Made by a program: the position numbers and the translations under genes. From a virus: a stretch of DNA of 64,000 nucleotides. Below are positions 4,191 through 61,058 of the stretch, one piece after another. The stretch is taken from IMG/VR virus record IMGVR_UViG_3300027608_000013, one strand, 5' to 3'. Positions within the stretch are counted from its first letter, which is position 1; each line of letters begins with the position of its first letter. A model generated the notes under the pieces. The model saw only the letters and a list, made by a program, of their open reading frames with translations, had not been told where the DNA came from and did not search any database.

Positions 4191-4219
4191 AAAGGGATGG
4201 CTTCGGTCGTCCCTTTTTT
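4191..4219 (+). terminator. Rho-independent terminator after capsid gene
   Basis: aaagggatggc-TTCG-gtcgtcccttt plus T run (cUUCGg loop). Confidence 0.9.
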
Positions 4220-4228
4220 ACTGTACAA

Positions 4229-4237
4229 ATATTTATA
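4229..4237 (+). promoter_or_regulatory. Putative late promoter ATATTTAT(A), representative copy
   Basis: Same motif upstream of genes at 1352, 4229, 5201, 10129, 16724, 19264, 19954, 29097, 30755, 36544, 53611. Confidence 0.6.
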
Positions 4238-4247
4238 TAAAAAGAAT

Positions 4248-5201: not shown

Positions 5202-5224
5202 TATTTATATAAAAAGGAATTAAC

Positions 5225-6448: not shown

Positions 6449-6459
6449 GGAGAAAAATT

Positions 6460-39392: not shown

Positions 39393-40091
39393 ATGACAGA
39401 TAAGAAAACGAAAAATCTAGAACTAGTTGAATCTGGATTTGCTAATGGTATATCAATACAGTTAGCAATTAAACAATCAATGCTCGGCTCAGATGCTGAA
39501 TTAACTAAAGAAGAAAAACAAACAATTATTGATAATGCTGCTTATCATTATGGAGAATTCCTTAGAGCATTAGGAGTTGCGTGGGAATTAGATCCTAATA
39601 GTGCAGATACACCTAGACGCGTAGCAAAAGCATATGTAAATGATTTATGGGCTGGTAGATATAATCCAATGTCAGGAATCACAGCATTTCCTAGTGATGG
39701 ATATGATGGCATTGTATTTGAAGGAGGTATTCCATTAACTTCAATGTGTTCACATCATCATCAAACCATTTCCGGACTTGTTCACGTTGCATATATACCA
39801 GGCGACAATAGCAATGTTATTGGTTTAAGTAAATTAAATCGTGTTGTAGAGCATTTTGGTAGACGAGGTGCTATTCAAGAACAATTAACAGTAGCAATTC
39901 ATCACGCAATAGATGAGCTTATTGAAAACAATAAAGGTGTAGCAGTTATGATTGAAGCAACTCATAATTGTGTGCAATGCAGAGGTGTTAAGCACGGCGG
40001 TGCTTCAATGAAGACTGCAAAATTAGCCGGAGCATTCCTAGAAGACGGTAATGCAAGAGCAGAATTTTATCAATTTGTAAAAGGTTATTAA
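39393..40091 (+). CDS. folE: GTP cyclohydrolase I
   Basis: DTPRRVAK, SMCSHH, GLSKLNR, IQEQLT, HNCVQCRGV. Confidence 0.93.
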   Translation: MTDKKTKNLELVESGFANGISIQLAIKQSMLGSDAELTKEEKQTIIDNAAYHYGEFLRALGVAWELDPNSADTPRRVAKAYVNDLWAGRYNPMSGITAFPSDGYDGIVFEGGIPLTSMCSHHHQTISGLVHVAYIPGDNSNVIGLSKLNRVVEHFGRRGAIQEQLTVAIHHAIDELIENNKGVAVMIEATHNCVQCRGVKHGGASMKTAKLAGAFLEDGNARAEFYQFVKGY

Positions 40092-40092
40092 A

Positions 40093-40557
40093 ATGGCAAA
40101 ATTTAACTCAACAAAATTATTTGACGGATATTCAACATGTTTCCGACAATGGCGAGCAGAAGATACACATTGCAAATTCTTACATGGATATGCAGTATCA
40201 TTCCGAGTATGGTTTGAAGGTGAATTAGATCATCGTAATTGGGTATGGGACTTTGGCGGTATGAAACGATCTAAAACAGAGATTAATCATATGTCACCTA
40301 AAGAATTCTTCAATTGGCTACTCGATCACACCACTATTATAGCTCAAGACGATCCGTATCTAGAAACTTTCAGACAAATGAACAAAGATGGTATTATACA
40401 ACTTAGAGTGTTACCAGCTACAGGATGTGAAAGATTTGCAGAATTCTTATACGACACAATCAACACTTTCTTAGCAAAAGAAACTGAAGGTAGAGTAAAA
40501 GCAACAAAAGTAGAAGTATATGAACACGAAAGAAACTCAGCAAGTTATGGAGAATGA
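40093..40557 (+). CDS. queD: 6-carboxytetrahydropterin synthase
   Basis: HCKFLHGY, WVWDFG, LDH, GCERFAE, VEVYE. Confidence 0.88.
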   Translation: MAKFNSTKLFDGYSTCFRQWRAEDTHCKFLHGYAVSFRVWFEGELDHRNWVWDFGGMKRSKTEINHMSPKEFFNWLLDHTTIIAQDDPYLETFRQMNKDGIIQLRVLPATGCERFAEFLYDTINTFLAKETEGRVKATKVEVYEHERNSASYGE

Positions 40558-40912
40558 TGAAACCTATGTATCGCTGTTTGAGTATTTAGGTAAAAGCTCT
40601 GGTGGTACAAATATTGGTAGAGAAGTAACAGCAGAAGCTGTTAAACGAGGCATTGATATTAAATGGAGAACACTTCCTAAAGAAGTTCAAAAGCCAGAAT
40701 ATACGCAAGTACAACTATATCCGATATCATTCTTGGATTCATATTTTAGCAATAATTCTAACCCGGAACTAGATCGAACACCATTAGTAAGGCGTTCTGA
40801 ATTAATTAAATTGCAACAACAATTTGAAGCACTCGAATCAATGTTTCAAGACGTAATTAAAAAATTAGATGTACCAATTAAATTAGATGATGACTATGAC
40901 CTCCCATTCTAA
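40547..40912 (+). CDS. Hypothetical protein
   Basis: YVSLFEYLGK...G.EV..., ends DDDYDLPF; ATG at 40547 after aagtt. Confidence 0.55.
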   Translation: MENDETYVSLFEYLGKSSGGTNIGREVTAEAVKRGIDIKWRTLPKEVQKPEYTQVQLYPISFLDSYFSNNSNPELDRTPLVRRSELIKLQQQFEALESMFQDVIKKLDVPIKLDDDYDLPF

Positions 40913-41678
40913 AAGAATTACAGACTATGACAAGGTCTTACCAATTGTCGAATTATATAGATGCGTTCAAAGTGAAGGATCTCGATTTGGTAGACCAACG
41001 ATTGCCGTAAGAACTACGGGTTGCACACATAGATGTTTCTTTGGCGAGGGTGGATGGTGTGATAGCTGGTACACTTCAATACATCCTGAGAAAGGTACAT
41101 TTACATTTAACGATATCATAAAGATATATGATGCCAATCCACATATTACAGAAATGATGTTGACGGGAGGTTCTCCGACAATGCATCCAGCATTAGTAAA
41201 TGAATTAACACACTTTGCACATGAAAGAAACATTATTATTACTATCGAAACTGAAGGATCTCATTTTGTTGCTACTGATTTTCCAATTGATGTCATTAGC
41301 CTCAGTCCTAAGTTTAATAATAGTATTCCCGTTTTGGGGACTGAGACGCCTCAGAAAGCTATTGTGGATGAAAAAATGATTACGCAACACAATAAATTTA
41401 GATTAAATAAAACGGCCATGGCTGAAATGATAATGTATCATAAAGATTATCATTACAAACCAGTATGGGATGGCACTCCTGAAAATTTAGCTGAAATTGA
41501 GGAATTACGTATAGAATTGCTTATTCCGAAAGAAAAGACATATATTATGCCAGCAGGTGATACTAGGGAAGAATTAATTCGTATGTATCCTATAGTGTTT
41601 GAAATGTGTGCCGAACATGGATACAACATGACAGGAAGAGACCATATTATAGCGTGGGATACGCAGCGCGGCGTGTAA
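40896..41678 (+). CDS. queE: 7-carboxy-7-deazaguanine synthase (radical SAM)
   Basis: VQSEGSRFGRPT..VRTTGCTHRC......WCDS, LTGGSP, IETEGS, SLSPK. Confidence 0.88.
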   Translation: MTSHSKRITDYDKVLPIVELYRCVQSEGSRFGRPTIAVRTTGCTHRCFFGEGGWCDSWYTSIHPEKGTFTFNDIIKIYDANPHITEMMLTGGSPTMHPALVNELTHFAHERNIIITIETEGSHFVATDFPIDVISLSPKFNNSIPVLGTETPQKAIVDEKMITQHNKFRLNKTAMAEMIMYHKDYHYKPVWDGTPENLAEIEELRIELLIPKEKTYIMPAGDTREELIRMYPIVFEMCAEHGYNMTGRDHIIAWDTQRGV

Positions 41679-41738
41679 ACTGCATATGATACTGAAAAAA
41701 GAATATAATAGTAGAAAGTATAATAAACAAAGGTAAAT

Positions 41739-41933
41739 ATGGCACGATTACAAGATCAAAATCTTAAAATAAAAATTCAAATTTTAGATGCAGAAGATAA
41801 TATTCTAGTATCAGGCGTAACTAGTTATACCATGGTACATGGTCTCGAAGTATATCAAGGCATCAGTGGTGTAGAAGAAATATATCGTATGTTATTAGAT
41901 GAACTAGAACAAAAACAACAAGCAGAAAAATGA
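41739..41933 (+). CDS. Hypothetical protein
   Basis: 64 aa ORF with AAGG upstream. Confidence 0.5.
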   Translation: MARLQDQNLKIKIQILDAEDNILVSGVTSYTMVHGLEVYQGISGVEEIYRMLLDELEQKQQAEK

Positions 41934-41989
41934 ATTGGACAACAACCACAACGTTTGGCGACGTTAAAATAAATTATGAAATACGATGA
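41930..41989 (+). CDS. 19-aa micro-ORF MNWTTTTTFGDVKINYEIR
   Basis: ATGA overlaps with both the upstream stop and the downstream thioredoxin start. Confidence 0.45.
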   Translation: MNWTTTTTFGDVKINYEIR

Positions 41990-42237
41990 AAAGAATCTTA
42001 TATTTCACAGCAACATGGTGCGGTCCATGTTCATATGTAAAACCGCAATTACAAGAAGCTTCTAATCAAATATCAATATCATTTGTTGATGTTGATTCTA
42101 GCAAAGACACTGTTGCAAAATACAATGTTAAAAATATTCCATGTGCCGTTTTAATAGATAGTAACGGAACAGAATTAGGAAGAGTAGTCGGCAGCAATGT
42201 AACAAAACAGTCAGTTATAAATTTATATAATCGTTAA
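41986..42237 (+). CDS. Thioredoxin
   Basis: FTATWCGPC, VDVD, NIP. Confidence 0.9.
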   Translation: MKRILYFTATWCGPCSYVKPQLQEASNQISISFVDVDSSKDTVAKYNVKNIPCAVLIDSNGTELGRVVGSNVTKQSVINLYNR

Positions 42238-42253
42238 AATAAAAGAACAAGTT

Positions 42254-42553
42254 ATGGAATGGAATCCAATTGGAGATCAGTTACTTTTAAAAGTAGCAAA
42301 GATTTCAGAAAAAACAAAAAGTGGAATTATCTTGGTAGATAGAGATATGCAATTCACACCAGCAGAAGTAGTAAAAGTAGGACCAGGTATATTCACAATG
42401 ACCGGTGATCGTATTCCTATGACAGTTAAAGAAGGCGATTCTGTATTAATTTACAAGTCTAATTTAGGCGAAAATAAAAGTGTAATGATTGATGATTCGG
42501 AATATTATTTAATTCGAGAATCAGAAGTAGGATTAGTAAAATCTACAAAATGA
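42254..42553 (+). CDS. groES: GroES-like co-chaperonin
   Basis: PIGDQLL, KTKSGIIL, VVKVGPG, VKEGD.V, Y.LIRESE. Confidence 0.88.
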   Translation: MEWNPIGDQLLLKVAKISEKTKSGIILVDRDMQFTPAEVVKVGPGIFTMTGDRIPMTVKEGDSVLIYKSNLGENKSVMIDDSEYYLIRESEVGLVKSTK

Positions 42554-42783
42554 TAGAAACATTAGGATGGATTAGTACAGCATTGGTATTAGCCGGTTAT
42601 ATTTTAAATGCACGTCAATTTTCAAAATTAGCAATGGTTGCTTGGATTGTAGGAGATATTGGTTGGATTACATATGATTTTTATATTGATAATTTCAGCC
42701 ACTTAGTACTTAGTTCAGTTATCATTGCAATAAATTTATACGGAATATGGAACTTATTATCAAAAAAGAAGACATCCAACTAA
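42550..42783 (+). CDS. Small three-helix membrane protein (PnuC/SemiSWEET-like)
   Basis: Hydrophobic; LGWISTALVLAGY.LNA...WIVGD.GW..Y...INLYGIWN. Confidence 0.55.
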   Translation: MIETLGWISTALVLAGYILNARQFSKLAMVAWIVGDIGWITYDFYIDNFSHLVLSSVIIAINLYGIWNLLSKKKTSN

Positions 42784-43253
42784 GGATAAAACGATTAGCA
42801 TTAGATATTGCTGATGATCACATAAAAACAGGCAACTTATTACCACCTGTAATGATATGCATACTTAATGGAGCATACATGTTTTATACGGATTTACTTA
42901 GAAATATGCCAATAGATGTTCAATCAGATTTTATCCGATTAAAGTCATATCAAGGGCAAGACAATTCCGGCGGTATTGAAATATTAAAAGGTTTAGAAGT
43001 AGATCTTAAAGGTCGCAATGTTTATGTGATTGATGATATTTGTGATACTGGTACAACCATATTACAAGCATTACTTATGGTAAATGGACATCTCCCACAC
43101 CAAGTAAAAGTGATTACTTTGACTCGAAGAGGTGGTGGAGTTGATCTAACTGATTTCTGCGGTTTTATTATTGGAGATGAATTTATTGCAGGATATGGGC
43201 TTGACAACGACGGAGTAGGAAGAAATTTAGAAGATTTATATAAGGTTAATTAA
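42747..43253 (+). CDS. hpt: Hypoxanthine/guanine phosphoribosyltransferase
   Basis: ILNGA.MF..DL, KSY.G, PRPP-binding VIDDICDTGTT, FIAGYGLD. Confidence 0.85.
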   Translation: MELIIKKEDIQLRIKRLALDIADDHIKTGNLLPPVMICILNGAYMFYTDLLRNMPIDVQSDFIRLKSYQGQDNSGGIEILKGLEVDLKGRNVYVIDDICDTGTTILQALLMVNGHLPHQVKVITLTRRGGGVDLTDFCGFIIGDEFIAGYGLDNDGVGRNLEDLYKVN

Positions 43254-45769
43254 TGGCATATCAAGCAATAGCATATGATAAAAAATCCGGCGTGATGCAC
43301 GTTTGGGATGATGAGTTAGGACATCAAAAGTTTCCTTTCAAACCATACGCATATTTACCTGACGACGCTGGCAAATATAAATCATTAGACGGAACACGAT
43401 TAAAACGTGTAGACGGCAATCATAAAGATAATCCGACAGCATACGAATCAGATATCAATGAAGAAATGCGAACATTGATTGATTTATATTATGAATCAGA
43501 TTTAGCATCAAAAGGTCACCGAGATTTCTTTTTTGACATTGAAACAGAACGCGATGAAGATGGATATTCAACTCCAGAAGAAGCTCGAGCTAGAATTACA
43601 TCTATTGCATATTATGACAAAGCAGGACAAGATCGTCGAGTATTAGTATTAGATGAAGAACGCCGATTGAAAGAAACAGGATTCAAAGGTGATGGGTATG
43701 TAGTTGAAATATTTGATTCTGAAGCAGGAATGCTAACCCGTTTTATTAATGCATTTGCAGAAATACAACCCACTGTAATTTCCGGTTGGAACACTGATAA
43801 TTATGATATCCCGTATCTTATTAACAGAATCAAAAAAATATTAGGTGCTCAAGCAATTAAGAAATTATCTCCGGCTGGAATTGTTGAATGGAGCCGAAGC
43901 AGAGAAAGATACAAAATATTTGGAGTATCTAGTTTAGATTACTTAACGCTTTACAAGAAATTTACATATACAGAACTTCCTAATTACCGATTAGATACGG
44001 TTGCTAAATTTGAATTAGGTCGAGGTAAGATTGAATATGATGGCGATTTGAATCATTTGTTTGCAACAGACATCAATAAGTTTGTTGAATATAATATGGT
44101 CGATGTTAATTTGGTTTATGATTTAGATGATAAATTGCAATTAATACCATTAGCTCGTACAATTTGCCATAAAGGTCACGTTCCATATGAAGATGTATAT
44201 TATGCATCAAAATATTTAGATGGTGCTGCTGTTGTTGATTTGAAACGCAACGGATTAGTTGCCCCAAACAAACGATTCCGATTTATTGAAGACGAAACTC
44301 AAGATACATTAGCAGGTGCGTATGTGATGCCACCGATACCTGGATTATACAAATGGATATATGACTTAGATTTAACATCACTGTATCCTAGTATCATTAT
44401 GAGTTTGAATATTTCACCAGAAACTAAAATTGGTGTAATTAAAAATTGGGAGGAAGAATGCCTATTAACTAATAGTGCTACGCAAGTAACATTTATGGAT
44501 GGGACATTTGTGCAAGATATAAAAACATGGTTACAAGATAATGCATATACAGTTGCAAGTAACGGAGCAGTATATCGCACCGATATCAGAGGATTCTTAC
44601 CTACCATTCTAGAAAAATGGTTTGATGAACGAGTTGAATTTAAAGATAAGCGAGATGAATATGAAGTAGGTTCTGAAAATTATAAATTTTATGATGCATT
44701 GCAGTTAACACAAAAAGTATTGCTTAATTCATTTTATGGAGTATTAGGACTTAAAACATTCCGTTTCCATGATATGGATAATGCGGGTGCCATTACAGCA
44801 ACAGGCCAAAGCGTAATTAAATTTTCAGCAAAGGTTATTAACAATCATTATGCAAAAGAAATCGGCAAAGATCATTTTATTAATGCAACGGGTATGAAAG
44901 CAGAGTTTGCATTCTATACAGATACAGATTCAACCTTTTGTAGTAGTTTGCCATTGATACAAGCTCGGTATCCGGATTATGATGAAACTGATGAACAATT
45001 TATGATTGCTAGAACCAATGAGATTGCATCAGAAGTTCAAACAAAAGTTAATGCAATGTATGATCGTTATGCAGTTGTATTTCATAATACAGAAACACAT
45101 CGTTGGCAAATTAAACAAGAATATATTGCAAAATCTGGTTTATGGATTGCAAAGAAACGATATACACAATGGGTTATTTTCAAAGAAGGGAAACCTACCG
45201 ATAAACTTGATGTTAAAGGTTTAGATGTTGTTAGATCTAGTTTTCCAGAAGATTTCAAAAAAATAATGAAAGAGACACTTTGGCATATTCTTAAAGAACG
45301 CAATAAAACAGATACCACTGATATGATTCATAAATTCAAATCCGGATTGAAAAATTCTGAAGTATTGAATGTAATGAAGAACTCCGGAGTAAAAGAAATA
45401 TCAAAGTATACAAAGAAAAGAAAACCATTTACAGGATATTTAACAGGTACGCCAGCTCACGTAAAAGCAGCAATCAATTTCAATGATTTATTGTCAATGC
45501 ACGGAATACGAGATACAACTCTTATTCAAAATGGAGAAAAAGTAAAATGGGCTTATTTAGCAGATAATCCATTTGGGTTTGATACAATGGCATTGCGAGG
45601 ATATCAAGATCCACCTCAAATTGTAGAATTTGTCGCTCAATACATTGATAGGAATAAAATCTTTCAAAGAGAACTTCAAAATAAACTTGATGATTTTTAT
45701 GCAGCAATGAATTGGGGCAAGTTCCCGGAAAATAATAATGCAAATAAATTTTTTACATTTGGAAAATAA
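43253..45769 (+). CDS. Family B DNA polymerase (gp43-like)
   Basis: FDIET, GWN...YDIPY, DLTSLYPSII, KVLLNSFYG, YTDTDS, KKRY. Confidence 0.95.
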   Translation: MAYQAIAYDKKSGVMHVWDDELGHQKFPFKPYAYLPDDAGKYKSLDGTRLKRVDGNHKDNPTAYESDINEEMRTLIDLYYESDLASKGHRDFFFDIETERDEDGYSTPEEARARITSIAYYDKAGQDRRVLVLDEERRLKETGFKGDGYVVEIFDSEAGMLTRFINAFAEIQPTVISGWNTDNYDIPYLINRIKKILGAQAIKKLSPAGIVEWSRSRERYKIFGVSSLDYLTLYKKFTYTELPNYRLDTVAKFELGRGKIEYDGDLNHLFATDINKFVEYNMVDVNLVYDLDDKLQLIPLARTICHKGHVPYEDVYYASKYLDGAAVVDLKRNGLVAPNKRFRFIEDETQDTLAGAYVMPPIPGLYKWIYDLDLTSLYPSIIMSLNISPETKIGVIKNWEEECLLTNSATQVTFMDGTFVQDIKTWLQDNAYTVASNGAVYRTDIRGFLPTILEKWFDERVEFKDKRDEYEVGSENYKFYDALQLTQKVLLNSFYGVLGLKTFRFHDMDNAGAITATGQSVIKFSAKVINNHYAKEIGKDHFINATGMKAEFAFYTDTDSTFCSSLPLIQARYPDYDETDEQFMIARTNEIASEVQTKVNAMYDRYAVVFHNTETHRWQIKQEYIAKSGLWIAKKRYTQWVIFKEGKPTDKLDVKGLDVVRSSFPEDFKKIMKETLWHILKERNKTDTTDMIHKFKSGLKNSEVLNVMKNSGVKEISKYTKKRKPFTGYLTGTPAHVKAAINFNDLLSMHGIRDTTLIQNGEKVKWAYLADNPFGFDTMALRGYQDPPQIVEFVAQYIDRNKIFQRELQNKLDDFYAAMNWGKFPENNNANKFFTFGK

Positions 45770-45787
45770 GAATAAATTTTATATAAT
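45759..45787 (+). promoter_or_regulatory. Sigma70-like promoter with -10 five nt upstream of ATG
   Basis: TTGGAA 45759-45764, N17, TATAAT 45782-45787, ATG 45793. Confidence 0.6.
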
Positions 45788-45792
45788 AAGTT

Positions 45793-46215
45793 ATGATTGG
45801 TTATAGAACACATTGGTATGGTAAAGAGGTTGAAGGTCGATTTACGGATATCGAAACCCTATTTATTTCGGATATAAAATCATTACAGGAAAAGTTAGAA
45901 GTTCCCGCACATGTTTATTTTTGTAGTCCAGCAACAGCACAATTGATTAAACAAGATGATTGGAAAAGTATGTTTGATTTAATTTCAGACAATACATTTG
46001 TTACAATTGAAGCAACACCTGGAATGGTAGAACAAATACCACCCATGATTAGAATTCGAACACACATCTTGTTAATGTTGAATTGTACGGATGCTGCCTT
46101 GTTAAAAAAGACAGATAGTATTAAAGTTGTATATGCAGATTATTCTTTATATTGTACCACAGTACATAATATGCAACAAGTTACCCCAGATGATTATAAA
46201 TTTGATAGACAATGA
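45793..46215 (+). CDS. Hypothetical protein heading the DpdA operon
   Basis: WYGKEVEGRF...TLF; ATGA overlap with next gene. Confidence 0.6.
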   Translation: MIGYRTHWYGKEVEGRFTDIETLFISDIKSLQEKLEVPAHVYFCSPATAQLIKQDDWKSMFDLISDNTFVTIEATPGMVEQIPPMIRIRTHILLMLNCTDAALLKKTDSIKVVYADYSLYCTTVHNMQQVTPDDYKFDRQ

Positions 46216-46562
46216 AATATAGCGTAGTAGTAACATTTAGCATTGAAGGATTCCATTGTTGGCCTGATGCTAAAGAAATATTTCCAGAAATGGCATTCTT
46301 ATCAGATAGGCATCGTCATATGTTTGGATTTCGATGTTATGCAACAGTAACACATACAGATAGAGATGAAGAATTTATTTTGTTAAACAGAAAGATACAA
46401 AAAGCTCTTCGTATAGCATTCATTAAGGCACAACCAAATATTTTAGAATTTGGATCAATGTCCTGTGAAATGATTGGCGAATGGTTATTAAATGAATTTT
46501 CTGCTTTATATAAAGTAGAAGTTTGGGAAGATTGGGAAAATGGTGCATGCATAGAAAGATAA
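46212..46562 (+). CDS. Second QueD-like T-fold protein
   Basis: EGFHCW, HRH, SCEMI, VEVWED.ENGA resemble the PTPS/QueD fold pattern. Confidence 0.6.
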   Translation: MKYSVVVTFSIEGFHCWPDAKEIFPEMAFLSDRHRHMFGFRCYATVTHTDRDEEFILLNRKIQKALRIAFIKAQPNILEFGSMSCEMIGEWLLNEFSALYKVEVWEDWENGACIER

Positions 46563-46563
46563 T

Positions 46564-47595
46564 ATGAAGATATTTTTAGTAGATTTAGAATCAGTTCCAA
46601 CACGATATACTTGTGAATGGAAATGGCACGTTCCGGCATTGCTTCGAGATAATGGATTTGACGTAGAAGTAATTGAAGGTGATTTAAGTATTCCAACAGC
46701 AACAACACCAGGTGCCTTTTTGAACTTTGGCGGTACTAACATGTACAAGGCTACTCAAACACATCGTTTGGCAGAATTATTCACACGCGGTGAAATTAAA
46801 GAAGGAGACCAGATTGTATTTACCGATGCTTGGCACCCGGGTATTATCAATGTTAAATACATGAGTGAACTCCTAAATATTTCCATTGTAACGCACGGAC
46901 TTTGGCACGCGGGTTCATATGATCCAAATGATTTTTTAGGTCGACTCGTAGGAGATAAACCATGGGTAAGACACGCTGAGCAAGCCTTTATTGGAGCATT
47001 TACACACAATTGGTTAGCAACTCAAGCACATTTTCAATTAATGAAAGAAACTTATGACATTATGCATGACAGTTCTTTTGATAGAACAGGTTGGCCTATG
47101 GAATATACCGAATCAATGATTGCTCCGAAGCTTTGGGCTAAGAAAGAAAATATCATTGTATTTCCACATCGAATAGCTCCAGAAAAGCGGTTAGATTTGT
47201 TTCAAGAATTAGCTTCTAGGCCGGAGTTAAAACATTATCAATTTTGTGTTGCAATGGAAATGAATTTGACTAAAATAGAATATCACGAATTGCTTCAACG
47301 AGCTAAATTTGCCGTCTCATTTGCAGATCAAGAAACATTGGGAATATCAATGTATGAATCAGCTTGTGCAGGAGCATGTCCAATTGTACCAAATAGATTA
47401 TCATATACGGAGATGTATGAACCAATGTTTAAACGAGCTGATTCAGTTGATTCAGCAGTAACGGCAATATTAGAATACGAACACGAAGAATTATCTGAAA
47501 ATATAGCACAATTGGTTGCAAAATTGCACAATAACTTTTTTTCAGCAACAAGATTAATTAATAAACTAAAGGAATACAATGAGCGAACAAAATAA
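46564..47595 (+). CDS. GT-B glycosyltransferase
   Basis: FPHRIAPEKR, QETLGISMYE, PNRLSY.EM. Confidence 0.75.
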   Translation: MKIFLVDLESVPTRYTCEWKWHVPALLRDNGFDVEVIEGDLSIPTATTPGAFLNFGGTNMYKATQTHRLAELFTRGEIKEGDQIVFTDAWHPGIINVKYMSELLNISIVTHGLWHAGSYDPNDFLGRLVGDKPWVRHAEQAFIGAFTHNWLATQAHFQLMKETYDIMHDSSFDRTGWPMEYTESMIAPKLWAKKENIIVFPHRIAPEKRLDLFQELASRPELKHYQFCVAMEMNLTKIEYHELLQRAKFAVSFADQETLGISMYESACAGACPIVPNRLSYTEMYEPMFKRADSVDSAVTAILEYEHEELSENIAQLVAKLHNNFFSATRLINKLKEYNERTK

Positions 47596-48841
47596 AAGAT
47601 TCATATACTTTCCATCTTTATCTGCGGGATCAATGGTCTCTGCATTTAAAAAGGATATGAAGTTTGATAATGGCGATCCAGTAAAATTCTATGATTCACG
47701 CTATCCTAAAGATTGGAGACATCCATACTTTTTGATTACAGCAGGACATCATTACAAGAAAATGGATTTTCGAGATCAAATAGGATTAGAAAAAGATGTG
47801 TTAGTATTTGGAGATTCAGGCGGATACCAAATTGCAACAGGAGCATTGCCATATAGCAATGAATTGCGAGAAAAAATATTTCATTGGTTAGAAGCTAATA
47901 GTGATGTTGCAGCAAATTTAGATATTCCACCTAAAACAAAATATAAAAATAAATTTGCTGAATGTGCAGACATTAGTTATGACAATTTTGCTTATTTTGA
48001 AAAACATCAAAGTGGCAAGACAAAATATCTTAACATGTTGCAAGGATCTAACACTGATGAATATACATGGTGGTATCACAAATTTAAGCATTTTGATTTT
48101 CAAGGATGGGCAATCGGAGGTCCGCAAAAATTAGTAGACTTTATGTTTGCTGTTTCATTAATGCTTAAAGAAAAAACATTTGAAAATCCTAAATTAGAAT
48201 ATTTGCATTTATTGGGTATTAGTAAAATATCTGACTTTTTTATTCTAGCAACTCTACAAAAGTTAATGAATAAAAATTATGGCAATAGAATCTATGTAAC
48301 AACGGATTCATCTTCTCCGGGACAATATCCAGTATATGGAACATATCTTCATTCTGCAAATTACAAAACACAAACCTTTTCGGAATTGTATTTTCCTAAA
48401 AATGCTGAATATAGAAGACAAGCACATATCCGACAAGGAAAAACCGGAGATGTTGGTGTAGATTTAACAAAACATGTACCATGTGCATTACATTGCCCCG
48501 GATGCGCTGATTTTACATATGAATTATTAGGCGGTAAAACGGCAGCTGGATTAGATAGATATTCACAAGAAGCTATGCCAAGAATGGTTGTTCACAATGT
48601 GCATTTGTATGTGCAATGTGCAGACGAAATCAATCAATTAGTAGACAGCCATGTAGAATTGTTAGAAACAGTTGTTCCTCGCGATTTATATGATGTTATC
48701 TTGTCATTGCATGAAATGTTTGCAGATCCAGATGCAGCACCTCAAGTATATGAAAAATATATTAAAACATACAAAAAGTTTGGCGGAAGTAGCATATCAA
48801 CTACTGATGCTGAAAATTTCAATAGATTCTTTAAATTTTAA
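47579..48841 (+). CDS. DpdA-like tRNA-guanine-transglycosylase-fold DNA base-exchange enzyme
   Basis: DSGGYQ, NLDIPP, LQG, HLLG, DSSS, CxxxCxxC followed by HN zinc-site pattern; folE/queD/queE nearby. Confidence 0.75.
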   Translation: MSEQNKRFIYFPSLSAGSMVSAFKKDMKFDNGDPVKFYDSRYPKDWRHPYFLITAGHHYKKMDFRDQIGLEKDVLVFGDSGGYQIATGALPYSNELREKIFHWLEANSDVAANLDIPPKTKYKNKFAECADISYDNFAYFEKHQSGKTKYLNMLQGSNTDEYTWWYHKFKHFDFQGWAIGGPQKLVDFMFAVSLMLKEKTFENPKLEYLHLLGISKISDFFILATLQKLMNKNYGNRIYVTTDSSSPGQYPVYGTYLHSANYKTQTFSELYFPKNAEYRRQAHIRQGKTGDVGVDLTKHVPCALHCPGCADFTYELLGGKTAAGLDRYSQEAMPRMVVHNVHLYVQCADEINQLVDSHVELLETVVPRDLYDVILSLHEMFADPDAAPQVYEKYIKTYKKFGGSSISTTDAENFNRFFKF

Positions 48842-48855
48842 AAAACAGGTTATAA

Positions 48856-49566
48856 ATGGAAAAAAGTAAATTACAATCATTTATCAGTAGATATTATCTG
48901 GCTGGTAATTGTGAAGCAGTTAAATTAAACGAAAACGACAAAGGTGTTAGTTGCGAATTAATTGATATGGATCAAACAGTAGTAGGAAAGATTCAATGGA
49001 ATACTACCCCGTTCATGAAAGGTGAATTAGGAATCAACCATACGGGCGCATTGATAAAAATGCTAGGAGCTGTAGGTGAAAATATCAATATTGATGTAAA
49101 AGATGCAGCGGGAAAGAATTATGCAATGACAATTTCCGAAGGAAGCACAAAGGCAACTTTTATGTTAGCAGATACCACAGTTATTCCGGCAGTGCCAACA
49201 ATTAATGCAGAACCTGATTATCTAATACAAATTCCAGTAAATGATGAATTCATTAGCAAATTTATCAAAGCAAAGAATGCATTGCCAGATGCAAAGAACT
49301 TTGCGGTGCAAGTACAAGGTGGAATTATTAAATTTATTATTAACTATACCACAGTTAATTCAGATAATATTTCTTTTGAAGTAGGTAAAACATCAAATGC
49401 AGATATGGAACCGGTTTGTTTCTCGGCAGATAAATTACGAGAAGTACTTATTTCAAATAAAGGCGATGCGGGTCAATTACATATTTCACCAGATGGTTTA
49501 GCTCGTATTGATTTTGTTGGTAGTGATTTTGAATCTAGCTATTGGTTGGTAATGTTACAGAATTAA
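48856..49566 (+). CDS. Sliding clamp (gp45-like)
   Basis: 236 aa, next to clamp loader, ends YWLVMLQ; based on synteny. Confidence 0.6.
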   Translation: MEKSKLQSFISRYYLAGNCEAVKLNENDKGVSCELIDMDQTVVGKIQWNTTPFMKGELGINHTGALIKMLGAVGENINIDVKDAAGKNYAMTISEGSTKATFMLADTTVIPAVPTINAEPDYLIQIPVNDEFISKFIKAKNALPDAKNFAVQVQGGIIKFIINYTTVNSDNISFEVGKTSNADMEPVCFSADKLREVLISNKGDAGQLHISPDGLARIDFVGSDFESSYWLVMLQN

Positions 49567-52996: not shown

Positions 52997-53208
52997 AGTA
53001 TAAGCACGAGCACGTGTTTGTATATCGATTTGAAATGGAAACCCATGTAAGTTGGCCAGGTAAGCGAGTAGGCACACAAGAATATACTTTGTGTACCAAT
53101 TATCCAGATCCAAACGGCAAAGCAAACAGAACATTGTTAGAATCGATGCTTCGTATGGTATATGGGCATATGCCTAAGAGTGTTAAATTTTTACATGAAA
53201 AAGTATGA
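52966..53208 (+). CDS. Hypothetical protein
   Basis: Fills gap; ATGA overlap with next gene; start uncertain. Confidence 0.45.
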   Translation: MSEREQDQGIKYKHEHVFVYRFEMETHVSWPGKRVGTQEYTLCTNYPDPNGKANRTLLESMLRMVYGHMPKSVKFLHEKV

Positions 53209-53609
53209 ATCGAGTAGCAGTAATTGGCAATACGGGTTGGCAAAATAGACGCAAAGTACAAGAAACGTTGCAACAATTAAAACAACGATTTGGCGATGAA
53301 TTAATAGTTATTGGTGCCGGCGGACAAGAAGGGGCTAATAGCATGGTTAGAAAATATACATTAGAATTTGGAATTACGTATGAAGAATATAATCCTAGTT
53401 TTTCAGGACATAACATGTACTCCGCTATGCCTGAGTCTTATTATGGAAAATCTTATCATTTTAGTCAGTTGCACCACCGTATGAAATTGATTGCAGAACG
53501 TTGTGATTATATGATGATAATGACTAATGAAGATGCATTAGATCCAGTATTAAAAACTGCATACACAAACATAAATAAATTGAAAAAACCGGTTGTAATA
53601 TTGGGCTAG
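53205..53609 (+). CDS. SLOG/YspA-like protein
   Basis: VAVIGN..W, GAGG.EGA, R.KLIAE.CD. Confidence 0.6.
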   Translation: MNRVAVIGNTGWQNRRKVQETLQQLKQRFGDELIVIGAGGQEGANSMVRKYTLEFGITYEEYNPSFSGHNMYSAMPESYYGKSYHFSQLHHRMKLIAERCDYMMIMTNEDALDPVLKTAYTNINKLKKPVVILG

Positions 53610-53642
53610 TATATTTATAATAAAGTTATATAAAAGGAATAA

Positions 53643-55133
53643 ATGGAGTTACCAAAGTTACAAAAATTCGACCCTAACAAGCCGAAGAAAAAGAAAATTT
53701 TATTGTTATCAGATGATTTTCGATTACCGTCGGGAATTGGAACAATAAGCAAAGAAATCATTTTTAATACCGTTAAGCAGTATGATTGGATACAATTAGG
53801 TGCCGCACTACATCATCCAGATGCTGGTAAGGCATTTGATTTGTCAGCTGACATTGTACGGGAAACGGGTGTAGAAGATGCCTCAGTTAAATTGATTGCA
53901 TGGAACGGATATGGAGATCGAAATATTTTATTTTCAATTCTTCAACAAGAAAAGCCAGATGCAATATTTCATTTCACGGATCCTAGATATTGGACTTGGT
54001 TGTATGCATTGGAACATGAAATCAAAACAACATATGGAGTTCCATTAGTTTATTATTCAATTTGGGATGATTTACCATATCCAATGTGGAACGCGCCATT
54101 TTATGGTAGTTGTGATTTGATTATGGGAATTAGTAAGCAATCTGATAATATCCATAGAGAAGTGCTTAAACAGAACGGATTCAAAGTTTTAGATTATGAT
54201 GAATTTATCAATCCTCGAGTAACCGTTGGATCTGATGAAATTATCACAGGTTTTGTTCCACACGGTTTAAATCATAACACATTCAAACCATTAGCCGCAA
54301 CAGATCCACAATATGTTGATATGTATACAAAAATTAAACAAGCTAATGATGTTGATTTTTTAGTATTTTGGAATAACAGAAATATTAGAAGAAAACAGCC
54401 AGGCGATGTTATTTTAGCATTCAAACACTTTGTTGATGGTTTACCTGAAGCAAATCGTGCACGAGTTGCACTTTTAATGCATACTCAAGTAGTAGATGAT
54501 AATGGAACTGATTTACGTGCCATATGGAAAACATTAGCACCGGCGTGCAAAGTATTATTTTCAGAAGCAAAGGTTAATGCACAAGAACTTAATGCAATGT
54601 ACAATGTAGCAGATGTAGTAGTTAATATTGCTAGCAATGAAGGTTGGGGACTTAGTTCAACTGAAGCAATATTGGCAGGTACCCCAATCATTAACAATGT
54701 TACTGGAGGATTACAAGACCAATGTGGGTTTACGGATGAAAATGGAGAATGGATTAGATTTAACAATGAATTTGCAACAAATCACACCGGTAAATATAAA
54801 AATCATGGAGTTTGGGTAAAACCAGTATTTCCAAGTAATAGATCGTTACAAGGATCACCAGCAACTCCATATATCTTTGACGACCGAGTAAATTTCGAAG
54901 ATGTTGCAACAGCAATTCGATATTGGTATGATATGCATCCAATTGTGCGTCAAAATGCTGGAGAAGCGGGCAGATCATGGGCAATGCAAAACGGTCTTAC
55001 GGCAGAACAAATGGGCAACAAAATGATTCATATGATGGATTACTTATTTGAATGTAAACCAATTACAAGAAAGCGTTATACATTAACACAAGTTACAGAA
55101 ACAAAATACGAAAAAACAGGAATAGTAGAATGA
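53643..55133 (+). CDS. Glycosyltransferase (GT-B, GT4-like)
   Basis: NRNIRRK, YNVADV...ASNEGWGLSSTEA..AGTPII. Confidence 0.85.
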   Translation: MELPKLQKFDPNKPKKKKILLLSDDFRLPSGIGTISKEIIFNTVKQYDWIQLGAALHHPDAGKAFDLSADIVRETGVEDASVKLIAWNGYGDRNILFSILQQEKPDAIFHFTDPRYWTWLYALEHEIKTTYGVPLVYYSIWDDLPYPMWNAPFYGSCDLIMGISKQSDNIHREVLKQNGFKVLDYDEFINPRVTVGSDEIITGFVPHGLNHNTFKPLAATDPQYVDMYTKIKQANDVDFLVFWNNRNIRRKQPGDVILAFKHFVDGLPEANRARVALLMHTQVVDDNGTDLRAIWKTLAPACKVLFSEAKVNAQELNAMYNVADVVVNIASNEGWGLSSTEAILAGTPIINNVTGGLQDQCGFTDENGEWIRFNNEFATNHTGKYKNHGVWVKPVFPSNRSLQGSPATPYIFDDRVNFEDVATAIRYWYDMHPIVRQNAGEAGRSWAMQNGLTAEQMGNKMIHMMDYLFECKPITRKRYTLTQVTETKYEKTGIVE

Positions 55134-56389
55134 GATCAGTAGTTATATCTAGTCCAGTAGCAACACAATCAGGCTACGGACATCATGCTCGAGAAGTAAT
55201 CAAACAATTCATAGATAAGCGAGGCGAAGAATGGGACATCAAGTTGCTTTCAATGCCATGGGGTCATACTCCTTTTACATTTCCAATTCCATTAGATTGG
55301 CAACGTAGAATAATTCCACTTCCATTAACGGAACAACCCGATGTTTGGGTGCAAATAACAGTGCCAAATGAATTTCAACCTATAGGTAAATATAATATTG
55401 GCGTAACGGCAGGAACTGAAGGAGATGTATGTCCTGCAGATTGGATCAATAAGATCAATCAAATGCAAGTTACAATTGTCCCTAGTGAATTTACCAAATC
55501 GGTATTTACAGAAACAGCAAAACGCAATAATTTATCAATAACAACAAATATTCAAGTGATTCCGGAATATTTTGATGAAACACAATACAATAACAAATCA
55601 GTAACTACTACCGTTGCTGGATTAGATGCAATTTCCGAATCGGAAACATTTTTAAGTGTTGGACATTGGCTTCAAGGTCAAGTAGGTGAAGATCGTAAAA
55701 ATATTGGCGGAATGCTTCATTGTTTCTTTAATACATTTAAAACAAAAAAAGATGCACCTGCATTAATACTTAAAACAAGTGGCGCTACATATTCAGTTAC
55801 AGATCGTTTTGAAATAGAAAATAGAATCAATCAAATTGCTTCATTGTTCCCGGGAGAAAAGTTACCTGCAGTATACATATTACATGGAGACTTAACAACG
55901 GCTGAAATGAATGCAATGTATAATCATCCCAAAGTAAAGGCAATGGTATCATTTACAAAAGCAGAAGGATTTGGTAGACCATTACTTGAATTTGCAACAA
56001 CGGGTAAACCTATAATTGCACCACATTATTCTGGCCAAGCTGATTTCTTAAAGAAAGATTTTATATGTGCATTGCCGGGGCAATTGACTCCAATTCATCA
56101 ATCATCACAAAATGATTTTTTAATTGCAGATGCAAAATGGTTCACACCTGATTATAGTTATGCAGGATCCATGTTGAAAGATGTTTTAAAGAATTATAAG
56201 AAATGGTCAGAACTAGCAAAACGCCAAAGATACTTTGTTAACTCAACATTTACTGAAACGGCAGTGGCTAACATATATGATCAAGTATTAGCAATTATTG
56301 ACTCTGGTGTTAATAAAATACCAAAAGCTGTTGAATTAAAATTGCCGGCATTGCAAAAACTACAATTACCAAAACTGCAAAAGGTTTGA
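55130..56389 (+). CDS. Glycosyltransferase (GT-B, GT4-like)
   Basis: SGYG.HAR, DRKN, KAEGFGRPLLEF...GKPII. Confidence 0.85.
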   Translation: MRSVVISSPVATQSGYGHHAREVIKQFIDKRGEEWDIKLLSMPWGHTPFTFPIPLDWQRRIIPLPLTEQPDVWVQITVPNEFQPIGKYNIGVTAGTEGDVCPADWINKINQMQVTIVPSEFTKSVFTETAKRNNLSITTNIQVIPEYFDETQYNNKSVTTTVAGLDAISESETFLSVGHWLQGQVGEDRKNIGGMLHCFFNTFKTKKDAPALILKTSGATYSVTDRFEIENRINQIASLFPGEKLPAVYILHGDLTTAEMNAMYNHPKVKAMVSFTKAEGFGRPLLEFATTGKPIIAPHYSGQADFLKKDFICALPGQLTPIHQSSQNDFLIADAKWFTPDYSYAGSMLKDVLKNYKKWSELAKRQRYFVNSTFTETAVANIYDQVLAIIDSGVNKIPKAVELKLPALQKLQLPKLQKV

Positions 56390-56413
56390 TAACAATAATA
56401 ATTTTAATATAAT
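56385..56413 (+). promoter_or_regulatory. Sigma70-like promoter with -10 five nt upstream of ATG
   Basis: TTTGAT 56385-56390, N17, TATAAT 56408-56413, ATG 56419. Confidence 0.5.
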
Positions 56414-56418
56414 ATAGT

Positions 56419-57039
56419 ATGAAAATAACATATGCTGTTACCGTTTGTAACGAATTTTTAGAAATACAACGCTTATTGAATTTTTTATTAAAGAATAAAA
56501 GATCAGAAGATGGTGTCGTTGTATTATATGATTCAAAGAATGGCGATCCAGAAATAGAATCATTTTTACGGGCTAAATCAGTTAATAAATCATTTGCTTG
56601 GCATAAAGCTGAATTTAAAGGCCATTTTGCTGATTGGAAAAATCATTTAACATCCTTATGTGATGGAGATTATATCTTTCAAATCGATGCCGATGAAATG
56701 ATTGACGAATATGTTTGTCGATTGTTACCGCAAATATTAGAAGCCAATCAAGTAGATGTAATTCGAGTTCCGAGAATCAACACAGTTAACGGTATGGATC
56801 AAGATCATATGCAACAATGGGGATGGGCTGTTAATGAACATGGATGGATTAATTTTCCAGATTATCAATGGCGAGTTTATAGAAATACCCCAGAGATACG
56901 TTGGGAGAATAAAGTACATGAACAATTAACCGGATACAAAACTATAGCACATTTACCAACAGAAAAGGAATGGTGTTTATTGCATCCTAAAACGCTTGCA
57001 CGGCAAATAAAACAAAATGCATATTATGATACACTCTAG
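56419..57039 (+). CDS. Glycosyltransferase family 2
   Basis: ITYAVTVCNE, FQIDADE, PDYQ.R, W..KVHE. Confidence 0.85.
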   Translation: MKITYAVTVCNEFLEIQRLLNFLLKNKRSEDGVVVLYDSKNGDPEIESFLRAKSVNKSFAWHKAEFKGHFADWKNHLTSLCDGDYIFQIDADEMIDEYVCRLLPQILEANQVDVIRVPRINTVNGMDQDHMQQWGWAVNEHGWINFPDYQWRVYRNTPEIRWENKVHEQLTGYKTIAHLPTEKEWCLLHPKTLARQIKQNAYYDTL

Positions 57040-57889
57040 TCCAATTACATTTTGTATATCAACTTATAATAATTTACCTTATTTAAAGTTAGCAATAAAA
57101 TCTGTACGAAAGAATAGCTTTTACAAAGATGCTCCATTTATTATTCACGCAGAAAATTGTACGGACGGTACTAATGAATGGCTATCTCAAGTTAAAGACG
57201 AATATAATTTAACTACGATTATTGAACCAAATAATGAAATAGTTAAAGGAATTGGCGGTGGCATGAATGTATGTGCTGAACATGTAGACACGGAATATAT
57301 CATGTTTTTACACTCTGATTTTTATGTATCCAAAAATTGGGATTCAAGTTTATTAAAAATATTCGAAAAATACCCAAATGAAAAGATTTGGACTAGTTCA
57401 CATCGTATAGAGCCTAGAATGTTTGAAAATTCAGATTCTCGTCCGGGTACTATTATAATTAATAAAGATATATGGGGTGCATATCATACTGATTTTAATC
57501 CTACAGGATTTGAACAATTTGCAAAAGAGTTTACGGAACAAAATTCAGAATATGAAATTTCTAAGGGAGAAGGAGTATCAGGCTTGATTCGAAAATGCGA
57601 TTGGGATGAAATAGGAGGCAATGATCCTTTATTTGCACCTGCAAGTTGGGATGATATGGATTTATTTTTAAGGATGACCAATTCTGGATTCAAATTTATT
57701 TTAACTGCATCGTCTTTAGTTTGGCATTTTGGTGCACGCGGTAGTCATAGATTAGAAGAGAATAACGGAAAAACGGCAGACCGGCAAAAACGAGCTGAAG
57801 AAAAAAATATACATATATGGCTAAATAAATGGCATGGTTTGCCTAAATATAACGATGTAGGTATGATAACAGGAATATTAATCAATTAA
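57017..57889 (+). CDS. Glycosyltransferase family 2
   Basis: ISTYNN, DGT.EWL, FLHSD, IGGND..F....WDD.DL..R. Confidence 0.8.
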   Translation: MHIMIHSSPITFCISTYNNLPYLKLAIKSVRKNSFYKDAPFIIHAENCTDGTNEWLSQVKDEYNLTTIIEPNNEIVKGIGGGMNVCAEHVDTEYIMFLHSDFYVSKNWDSSLLKIFEKYPNEKIWTSSHRIEPRMFENSDSRPGTIIINKDIWGAYHTDFNPTGFEQFAKEFTEQNSEYEISKGEGVSGLIRKCDWDEIGGNDPLFAPASWDDMDLFLRMTNSGFKFILTASSLVWHFGARGSHRLEENNGKTADRQKRAEEKNIHIWLNKWHGLPKYNDVGMITGILIN

Positions 57890-57903
57890 AAACAAAATAA
57901 CAC

Positions 57904-58872
57904 ATGAAGAAACGAGCATTAATTACAGGAATCGGCGGAATGGATGGATCGCATCTAGCTGAATTCTTATTATCTAAAGATTATGAAGTATTTGGATTAG
58001 AACGAAGAAAATCTACTCCATATTCACCGAATTTAAAAAATGTTAGTAATAACATTAATTTATTGAAAGGAGATTTATCCGATCAAAACTCATTGCTTCG
58101 AGCAGTTAAAGAAAGTGAGCCACATGAAGTTTATAATTTAGGTGCACAATCATTTGCAGGAGAAAGTTGGGGAACTCCAGAACAAACATCTGATATTACA
58201 GGTTTAGGTGCATTACGGGTACTTGAAGCAATTCGAGAGTATGGAAATAAAAATACTAAATTTTATCAAGCATCGACATCAGAAATGTTTGGAAAAAAAG
58301 GTGGAACTGCAAATGAATTAACAGATTTTCATCCTTGTTCGCCATATGGTGTATCAAAATTATATGCACATTGGATAACGCGTAATTATCGAGAAAGTTA
58401 CGGTATTTTTGCAGTAAATGGAATTTTATTTAATCATGAATCTGAAAGACGCGGTGTCGAATTTGTAACAAGAAAAATTACAGATGGCGTTGCAAAAATT
58501 CATTTAGGTTTAGCTGATCACATTACCTTAGGTAATTTAGATTCAAAAAGAGATTGGGGTTACGCTCCAGATTACGTAGAAGGTATGTGGATGATGTTGC
58601 AACAAGATCAACCAGAAGATTATGTGTTAGCAACTGGCGAAACTCATTCAATTAAAGAATTTTTAGATGAAGCATTTAGATGTATCGGTGTTGATAATTG
58701 GACTAAATTTGTTAAATTTGATAGCAAATTTCTTAGACCAGTTGATCCAATGTATTTATTAGGAGATTCTACAAAAGCAAGAGAAAAATTAGGATGGGCT
58801 CCAAAAACATCGTTTACGGAAATGGTTTCTAAAATGGTAACTAATGATATATCATTACTTCGAGGTATTTAA
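57904..58872 (+). CDS. gmd: GDP-mannose 4,6-dehydratase
   Basis: ALITGI.G.DGS.LAE.LL, YNLGAQS, YQASTSE, SPYGVSK, LFNHES, RDWGYA.DYV. Confidence 0.92.
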   Translation: MKKRALITGIGGMDGSHLAEFLLSKDYEVFGLERRKSTPYSPNLKNVSNNINLLKGDLSDQNSLLRAVKESEPHEVYNLGAQSFAGESWGTPEQTSDITGLGALRVLEAIREYGNKNTKFYQASTSEMFGKKGGTANELTDFHPCSPYGVSKLYAHWITRNYRESYGIFAVNGILFNHESERRGVEFVTRKITDGVAKIHLGLADHITLGNLDSKRDWGYAPDYVEGMWMMLQQDQPEDYVLATGETHSIKEFLDEAFRCIGVDNWTKFVKFDSKFLRPVDPMYLLGDSTKAREKLGWAPKTSFTEMVSKMVTNDISLLRGI

Positions 58873-59813: not shown

Positions 59814-59827
59814 AAAAAAAGGAATAC

Positions 59828-61057: not shown

Positions 61058-61058
61058 A

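Follow-up and report, generated by a model that had tools for sequence, protein, structure and literature searches.

The locus at positions 39,393–48,841 of the IMG/VR virus record IMGVR_UViG_3300027608_000013 raises the question of which base this uncultured phage might place in its DNA instead of guanine, and whether a glycosyltransferase (GT) encoded among the base-modification genes attaches a sugar to it. The whole stretch of 64,000 nucleotides (nt), referred to below as the window, bears the markers of a T4-like myovirus (Gp23 capsid protein, tail sheath, gp32, a RecA/UvsX-like recombinase and an RFC-type clamp loader). Among the predicted products of the locus are FolE, QueD-like and QueE enzymes, which would make 7-carboxy-7-deazaguanine (CDG), a homologue of the proposed CDG decarboxylase DpdL, the GT, a DpdA-like member of the tRNA-guanine transglycosylase (TGT) superfamily, and a protein of 140 amino acids (aa) that we call uX (Table 1). 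We propose, at a probability of roughly 0.55, that the phage swaps guanine in its own DNA for a base of the 7-deazaguanine type and probably adds a sugar to that base. The main new point of the analysis is the linkage of the GT to DpdL across phage lineages.

Predicted genes for a 7-deazaguanine-type base

An earlier note on the window had described folE, queD and queE at the start of the locus, and all three are recovered there by matches in Pfam, PHROG and NCBIfam. The canonical QueD motif is CxxxHGH; in the QueD-like protein of the window it reads CKFLHGY, in which a tyrosine would take the place of the last zinc-binding histidine. As the note had stated, neither QueC nor QueF is found by a Pfam scan of the 67 open reading frames (ORFs) of the window. 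The search was extended to a relative whose 159,586-bp genome carries direct terminal repeats and is rated 100% complete, and whose GT and DpdA-like protein are 79% and 89% identical to those of the window; no match to QueF was obtained in it, nor to QueC, for which the identical search was positive in 14 of 14 control genomes.

The second T-fold gene of the locus encodes a homologue of DpdL. Its 116-aa product aligns with phiST DpdL (gp040, CGPG_00067) over 116 of 116 residues at 40.7% identity (E 3e-15). The DpdL motif given by Cui, Hutinet et al. (NAR 2023, PMC10516641) is LxxxHRHxF, which replaces the CxxxHGH of QueD. Residues 30–38 of the homologue, LSDRHRHMF, fit this motif, and 13 aligned sequences all share H34, R35, H36 and F38; a single-sequence search of the PDB with this protein returned nothing. 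In the window and in the complete relative, the homologue co-occurs with FolE, QueD, QueE and the DpdA-like enzyme, in the absence of QueC.

These genes recall a described system. In phages phiST, phi19:2 and phi13:1, deoxyguanosine is reported from liquid chromatography–mass spectrometry to be replaced by 2'-deoxy-7-deazaguanosine (dDG), and DpdL is proposed to be a CDG decarboxylase and DpdA3, a remote TGT homologue, the inserting enzyme (PMC10516641); decarboxylation by DpdL is a proposal even for phiST. Like the window, phiST combines FolE, QueD, QueE, DpdL and a remote TGT-like enzyme, lacks QueC, and has the cluster next to the replicative polymerase. Unlike the window, phiST has no GT and no uX in the stretch read, carries a 165-aa P-loop protein between DpdL and DpdA3 and a MazG gene upstream, and possesses a DpdA3 of 259 aa with no pairwise similarity to the 420-aa protein of the window. 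The core of the region thus appears, by homology, to be the QueC-less dDG pathway of the phiST type, which is already known. The earlier proposal of a QueC-less pathway of the 7-deazaguanine type is borne out by this gene content, and it is highly probable that a modification of this type is made. Of the two inserted bases that had been considered, 7-deazaguanine is now favoured over CDG because DpdL is present.

The exchange of the base would fall to the last gene of the locus, for which membership of the TGT superfamily had been suggested and is supported, in a DpdA-like form. Nine of 12 family members match the Pfam TGT profile (best E 1.1e-6; the window protein itself, E 0.094), and a profile built from 19 DpdA-like sequences of three subfamilies yielded 36 matches in the PDB, all to queuine tRNA-ribosyltransferase, at weak E values of 0.08–0.31; a single-sequence PDB search and a first profile found nothing. 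In a protein atlas, the protein belongs to viral clusters, one of which has TGT on 15% of its members. The conserved motifs of the family are DSGGxQ, LDxP, HxLG and D243, with D79, S80, G81, G82, Q84, D115, P117, H210, L212, G213 and D243 invariant in the 19 sequences, and DSGGxQ (D79-S-G-G-x-Q84) aligns on TGT residues 101–107; the catalytic nucleophile of TGT enzymes is a conserved Asp. The protein also matches QCG76197 of phage PA5oct (E 6e-20), which is listed as DpdA3 in Supplementary DS1 of Cui et al. (PMC10516641). The Cys cluster and the length of the 420-aa form are unlike those of phiST DpdA3 and PA5oct QCG76197, and the protein is filed here as DpdA-like, a probable remote member of the TGT superfamily.

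More distant relatives occur elsewhere. Phage vB_PpuM-Peetri and eight related Pseudomonas putida jumbo phages encode a distant DpdA-like relative (~21% identity over 71% of the length), and searches of their records with the GT and with DpdL gave no hit. In Xanthomonas phage BUDD, a 164-aa protein of the PAPS-reductase family (8.4e-13; positions 5374–5868) is encoded between FolE and the GT–TGT–DpdL block; QueC has the ATP-pyrophosphatase fold, of which this protein might be a short member.

The glycosyltransferase and uX as probable partners of DpdL

The reading of the 46564 protein as a GT-B glycosyltransferase is supported by its structure model (pLDDT 85.6, pTM 0.84). Its nearest solved folds in Foldseek are BshA (best, E 1.6e-9, TM score 0.68), MshA and glycogen synthase, the three spanning E values of 1.6e-9 to 7e-9 and TM scores of 0.64–0.69; the HY126 phage DNA glycosyltransferase ranks 43rd (E 3e-7) and tetrahydrobiopterin glucosyltransferase 45th, and neither the alpha- nor the beta-glucosyltransferase of T4 is among the best structural matches listed. 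In GT4 enzymes, the EX7E motif and an Arg/Lys pair are features of nucleotide-sugar donor binding. In the present family, all 18 sequences compared have E257-x7-E265, R203 and K208, and E265, R203 and K208 are also invariant in five distant phages. The Pfam profile Glycos_transf_1 narrowly misses its cut-off (26.1 against 26.4 bits, E 7.3e-6), and a single-sequence PDB search found nothing; the predicted GT4/GT-B assignment is carried by the fold and the motifs, not by the Pfam score. Homologues are found in PA5oct (QCG76198, 39% identity, E 3e-76) and ACP17 (37%), and a structural comparison of the window and ACP17 enzymes gives a TM score of 0.90.

Other phages offer observations on related enzymes. 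In Xanthomonas phage PhiXhv-15 (positions 4753–7987), a 25.7%-identical GT homologue follows a GlmS-like aminotransferase and an LmbE/BshB-type deacetylase, in surroundings with no annotated deazaguanine genes; this context hints that the clade may use an N-acetylhexosamine donor. Synechococcus phage BUCT-ZZ01 encodes, directly upstream of its DpdA-like gene (3004–4347), a second glycosyltransferase of 447 aa (Glyco_trans_1_4, 3.4e-5).

IMG/VR contains at least 543 stretches with relatives of the GT, and the locus counts given here rest on the best 80 loci by GT match, which fall into two lineages: that of the window (24 loci) and a second one with a PA5oct-type DpdA (56 loci). All 71 loci with 700 nt or more of sequence in front of the GT contain DpdL, 68 of them within 1.5 kb. 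The GT is further present in a third viral lineage, made up of eight loci that were reached via DpdL alone, in four of the seven with adequate flanks. Among phage-collection records with a GT match, 17 of 23 also have a DpdL match, the six exceptions being a single PA5oct-like record and five jumbo phages of Xanthomonas/Erwinia that carry the 25.7%-identical GT; DpdL records without the GT number 11 of 28 and include the phiST group.

The two genes are adjacent or within ~3 kb of each other in PA5oct, ACP17, Phosso, BUCT-ZZ01, BUDD/X1 and BCSR5. The GT lies between DpdA3 and DpdL in PA5oct, between DpdA2 and DpdL in ACP17, and directly 3' of DpdL in Phosso and BUCT-ZZ01, and the order in BUDD is GT, TGT, DpdL. 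PA5oct and ACP17 resemble the window in having the same GT between or beside DpdA and DpdL, and ACP17 also in a uX-family gene upstream of DpdA; they differ from it in gene order, and PA5oct differs further in a DpdA3 of 540 aa that lacks the window-type Cys cluster in the alignment. Supplementary DS1 of Cui et al. assigns DpdL with DpdA3 to PA5oct and DpdL with DpdA2 to ACP17 (PMC10516641), and by these classes the GT is found alongside both types of DpdA. The coupling of the GT to DpdA in the earlier note is therefore replaced by a tie to DpdL. Since the GT almost always comes with DpdL and DpdL often comes without the GT, a GT step after DpdL, acting on its product, fits the distribution.

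The 140-aa protein uX had been put forward as a candidate pathway member, and there is good evidence that it works with DpdL, because the two are fused in three clusters that are less than 50% identical to each other. uX has no match in Pfam, PHROG or NCBIfam and no tblastn match among cultured phages. A profile of nine uX sequences searched against 1.84 billion representatives gave 260 clusters at E≤0.001, 105 of them at E≤1e-10, and three are longer chains in which a DpdL domain precedes uX, namely P0174 (264 aa), P0217 (268 aa) and P0181 (371 aa). In P0217, residues 7–115 are 43% identical to the DpdL homologue of the window (E 3e-29) and residues 134–267 are 28% identical to uX (E 2e-12). 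P0217 was not found in viral contigs, nor P0174 in genome contigs; P0181 matched one 6-kb contig of a metagenome-assembled genome.

Gene order points the same way. uX is next to DpdL in 19 loci of the window lineage and 45 of the second lineage; where 1.5 kb is available on both sides of DpdL, a hidden Markov model detects it in 16 of 16 and 45 of 45 loci, respectively, and in one of the seven loci reached via DpdL alone. In one viral contig, DpdL is followed by uX and then by the GT. The second-lineage and ACP17 genes in question encode proteins of ~170 aa (ASD50402-type) that sit between DpdA and DpdL; the uX member P0203 matches their profile with a probability of 97.3% (E 2.2e-11), the direct profile–profile comparison with uX is weaker (74%, 2.9e-5), and the two sets are treated as one putative family. 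No uX turned up in the stretches covered for phiST, PA5oct, Phosso and BUCT-ZZ01, and a Phosso "glycosylase" adjoining DpdL was considered and rejected as a member.

The model of uX (pLDDT 77.7) has no Foldseek match at E≤0.001, its best VIA match is to STAS domains (Z 5.8, within the range of common arrangements for that tool), the only matches of a PDB profile search are leucine-rich repeats, and the protein atlas gives unnamed viral clusters at a score of 0.81, within the chance range. QueE chains appear in the VIA alignment (Z 4.5–4.9 over 86–127 residues) with N-terminal motifs that look alike; the idea of uX as a cluster-less QueE remnant was rejected, hhalign giving a probability of 6% over 26 columns.

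A proposed pathway and its alternatives

In the proposed pathway, CDG would be made from GTP by FolE, QueD and QueE, enzymes whose family biochemistry is established and is assigned here by homology. DpdL would then strip the carboxyl group of CDG to give 7-deazaguanine, probably in a complex with uX, and the DpdA-like enzyme would exchange guanine in DNA for this base, probably docked on the sliding clamp via a KFFxF tail. The freed guanine would be cleared by the Hpt-type phosphoribosyltransferase encoded upstream, and the GT4 enzyme would transfer a sugar from a nucleotide sugar to the deazapurine, either free or in DNA, a placement that we infer from synteny. A working role of the GT and uX in the pathway is considered likely, and a sugar on the final DNA base is given slightly less than an even chance. 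The claim is more tentative still when extended to its full reach, in which the window lineage together with PA5oct, ACP17, Phosso and BUCT-ZZ01 would carry glycosylated 7-deazaguanine made by a DpdL–uX complex, a GT4 enzyme and a clamp-riding DpdA, with the phosphoribosyltransferase pulling the exchange to completion.

The docking step is suggested by a KFFxF-like tail with which both PolB, the B-family DNA polymerase (...KFFTFGK), and the DpdA-like enzyme (...RFFKF) end. In the 15 loci of the window lineage in which both tails are readable, an FFxF-type tail is kept on both proteins, with 4–5 extra residues after the DpdA motif in four loci. PolB of the second lineage ends in ..LFxF(E), and three of its DpdA proteins end in ..SLFEF, like their own polymerase; most other DpdA proteins of that lineage have an internal FNxLF followed by an acidic extension. 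This pattern fits a clamp-docking peptide and hence action on DNA at the fork. A putative clamp gene is the 236-aa ORF that follows the DpdA-like gene and is kept beside it in 20 loci of the window lineage; it has no match in Pfam, PHROG or the PDB.

The phosphoribosyltransferase occurs in two forms: an Hpt-type enzyme at the equivalent position in 12 of the 24 window-lineage loci, and a Gpt-type enzyme in 28 of the 56 second-lineage loci and in BUCT-ZZ01, the two types having only a 74-residue local match in common. The recruitment of two different 6-oxopurine enzyme types suggests a real link to the deazaguanine clusters. Removal of the guanine released by base exchange is the favoured role, with a nucleotide route for the deazapurine as the alternative.

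The addition of a sugar to a DNA base has precedents among pyrimidines. T4 makes glucosyl-hydroxymethylcytosine via phage DNA glycosyltransferases. Arabinosyl-5-hydroxycytosine is reported to be made by such enzymes in HY126, RB69 and DLP3 (PMC13326640). The likeness lies in a GT-B enzyme beside genes for an unusual base and in the structural match to the HY126 enzyme; the differences are that the acceptor there is a pyrimidine hydroxyl, whereas the candidate base here is a purine analogue without a hydroxyl, and that no relation to the window GT is found at the level of sequence. A chemical precedent for glycosylating the 7-deazaguanine ring system would be provided by huimycin and dapiramicin, N-glycosylated natural products in which a glycosyltransferase adds the sugar to the exocyclic amine, although these compounds are not DNA bases: actinomycetes build them on preQ0 as free secondary metabolites. 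In the literature searched (titles and abstract openings), no glycosylated deazaguanine in DNA and no DpdL-linked GT is described, and Cui et al. was, among the papers listed, the only relevant one on DpdL or DpdA3; the term "glycosyl" is absent from its main text and PA5oct QCG76198 from its supplement (PMC10516641).

Several points weigh against glycosylated 7-deazaguanine in the DNA of this phage. 7-Deazaguanine has no hydroxyl group, so the sugar would need to be attached at N2, O6 or a ring carbon, and such an attachment in DNA was not found in print. phiST, the only DpdL system whose DNA has been measured, lacks both GT and uX. The GT family is acidic (pI 5.4–6.3), and its nearest solved folds are those of enzymes with small-molecule substrates (BshA, MshA and glycogen synthase). 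The count of 71 of 71 loci is inflated by shared descent, drawn as it is from the best-scoring GT matches of two lineages; the PA5oct-like record LC727697 has the GT and no DpdL match at the threshold, and no deazaguanine genes were found in a 14.8-kb stretch from one of the five jumbo phages with the distant GT, which there adjoins GlmS and a deacetylase. The TGT link of the window DpdA-like protein is weak at the sequence level, as the Pfam E value of 0.094 indicates, and no significant BLASTP match connects it with phiST DpdA3.

Some of these points are shared by the best-surviving alternative, which is nonetheless unlikely: that the final base is plain dDG and that the GT and uX help to make or deliver 7-deazaguanine, e.g., through a transient glycosylated or protein-bound intermediate. 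The fusion of uX with DpdL in three clusters points to a base-making step, and the acidity of the GT and its small-molecule fold neighbours agree with this. DpdL and DpdA of ACP17 are reported to have produced no dDG in E. coli, in a construct that left out the GT encoded between them (PMC10516641). However, the phiST pair is reported to have failed likewise, so the ACP17 result says little about the GT, and phiST itself fully replaces deoxyguanosine by dDG with neither GT nor uX, hence neither is needed for the chemistry.

An improbable reading is that the GT acts elsewhere, on a pyrimidine in DNA that carries a hydroxyl or hydroxymethyl group, on a protein of the virion or on a host glycan, and that the clustering merely reflects early DNA-metabolism genes. 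Phage GT-B enzymes do glycosylate 5-hydroxymethylcytosine and 5-hydroxycytosine according to PMC13326640, distant GT homologues occur without deazaguanine genes, and the window contains a separate large sugar and GT cluster at 53.6–64 kb. Relatives also encode a thymidylate-synthase-family protein, but its 290 bits to Thymidylat_synt are judged a better fit to ordinary ThyA than to a hydroxymethylase. The reading is further opposed by the position of the GT next to DpdL, in different gene orders, in unrelated phages of Pseudomonas, Acidovorax, Sinorhizobium, Synechococcus and Xanthomonas hosts as well as in the third viral lineage.

Slightly less probable again is entry of the base before replication, in which the phosphoribosyltransferase would make a 7-deazaguanine (or CDG) nucleotide to be reduced, phosphorylated and built in by PolB, leaving the TGT-like enzyme a secondary or different role. 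PRPP-dependent enzymes ribosylate 7-deazapurine bases in the toyocamycin and tubercidin pathways. Two types of 6-oxopurine phosphoribosyltransferase are present in the clusters, and that of the window is flanked by a class II ribonucleotide reductase, a thioredoxin and a dUTPase. Against this route, the phosphoribosyltransferase is present in only half of the loci of each lineage (many of them cut short), and it was not found, by annotation, in the stretches read from PA5oct, ACP17, Phosso and BUDD; the TGT-like gene is conserved and has a polymerase-like tail, and Cui et al. argue for insertion after replication (PMC10516641). Finally, a TGT-like enzyme that acts on tRNA only, in a phage with plain DNA, would agree with the superfamily but is very improbable, since the tRNA substrates preQ0 and preQ1 are not made in the absence of QueC, the enzyme has a PolB-like C-terminal tail and adjoins replication genes, and PA5oct, which bears a homologue, is reported to have DNA that withstands restriction enzymes with G in their site (PMC12191111).

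Gene layout and implications

Every gene of the region lies on the + strand (Table 1). QueE is followed by thioredoxin, Cpn10, a 77-aa membrane protein, the Hpt-type phosphoribosyltransferase, PolB and then the four-gene block that starts at 45793, 46212, 46564 and 47579, all four genes being confirmed where they had been called. The tight coupling claimed for the block is found, with a 4-nt overlap between the 140-aa and 116-aa ORFs, a gap of 1 nt before the 343-aa ORF and a 17-nt overlap between the 343-aa and 420-aa ORFs. The claim that the block is separately promoted did not hold: only 23 nt separate it from the end of PolB, a single sigma-70-like site lies at 45759–45787, and the region has no excess of such sites (47 observed, 55.9 ± 7.5 in shuffles).

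Table 1. Predicted genes of the locus and the putative clamp gene that follows it
Feature	Position	Strand	Basis
FolE, GTP cyclohydrolase I, first step towards CDG	39393..40091	+	Pfam PF01227 GTP_cyclohydroI 1.6e-43; NCBIfam FolE 3e-43, under equivalog cut-off
QueD-like 6-carboxy-tetrahydropterin (CPH4) synthase	40093..40557	+	Pfam PTPS 1e-14; phrog_2389 4.1e-37
130-aa ORF	40520..40912	+	overlaps end of QueD and start of QueE; no family
QueE, radical-SAM CDG synthase	40887..41678	+	phrog_2076 4.2e-50; NCBIfam QueE 9.6e-16, under cut-off
Hpt-type 6-oxopurine phosphoribosyltransferase, probable helper	42747..43253	+	TIGR01203 HGPRTase 6.8e-37, 126.8 bits against a cut-off of 150
B-family DNA polymerase, ends ...NKFFTFGK	43253..45769	+	Pfam DNA_pol_B 1e-37
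uX, DpdL-associated protein, 140 aa	45793..46215	+	no named family; DpdL fusions; adjoins DpdL in relatives
DpdL homologue, proposed CDG decarboxylase, T-fold QueD paralogue	46212..46562	+	phiST gp040, 40.7% identity; phrog_17812 7.8e-23
GT-B fold, GT4-type glycosyltransferase, syntenic with DpdL	46564..47595	+	model, Foldseek, motifs, PA5oct homologue
DpdA-like TGT-superfamily enzyme, 420 aa, ends ...NFNRFFKF	47579..48841	+	DSGGxQ motif, TGT profiles, PA5oct QCG76197
Putative sliding clamp, 236-aa ORF	48856..49566	+	position only, upstream of RFC-like (50005) and Phage_clamp_A (51362) genes

The 130-aa ORF at 40520..40912 has no Pfam, PHROG or NCBIfam family at E≤0.001, and tblastn finds it at the equivalent place in the loci of seven relatives at 40–81% identity. 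The 77-aa predicted membrane protein, encoded at 42550–42783 after Cpn10 and before the phosphoribosyltransferase, is kept within the lineage, has a weak Imp-YgjV match (E 0.0068) and may be a small transporter. Outside the locus, a 440-aa ORF at 27809–29131 resembles family A DNA polymerases in their C-terminal part (2.7e-13), in addition to the full B-family polymerase that the phage encodes. Positions 53205–63998 hold an SLOG (YAcAr) protein gene followed by the sugar cluster (~53.6–64 kb). The glycosyltransferases of the cluster comprise one of the "GT4-conflict" kind, a second one of GT1 type and two of GT2; it further encodes a GDP-mannose 4,6-dehydratase (2.6e-121), a sugar C-methyltransferase and a reductase that resembles GDP-fucose synthase. 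The SLOG gene and the first GT gene are kept in lineage relatives. The cluster could serve to provide a deoxy-sugar donor, or to assemble a longer glycan on the DNA, the virion or the host. At the nucleotide level, the sole match of the window among 50,697 phage records is a 498-nt FolE stretch of Cellulophaga phage phi13:1.

7-Deazaguanine in DNA is a phage counter-defence against restriction enzymes, and the phage DNA glycosylations in the literature searched concern pyrimidines. If the proposed pathway is true, a sugar on a deazapurine would constitute a new class of DNA base and, as far as that literature goes, the first sugar-bearing purine analogue described in DNA, with relevance to restriction and glycosylase-type defences, to how environmental phage DNA is sequenced and to the labelling of DNA by enzymes. 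The DpdL–uX fusions name a missing partner, which may explain the failed reconstitution of dDG from DpdL and DpdA in E. coli. The module is common, as the number of GT-encoding stretches in IMG/VR indicates, and it is present in cultured phages, which makes the prediction directly testable.

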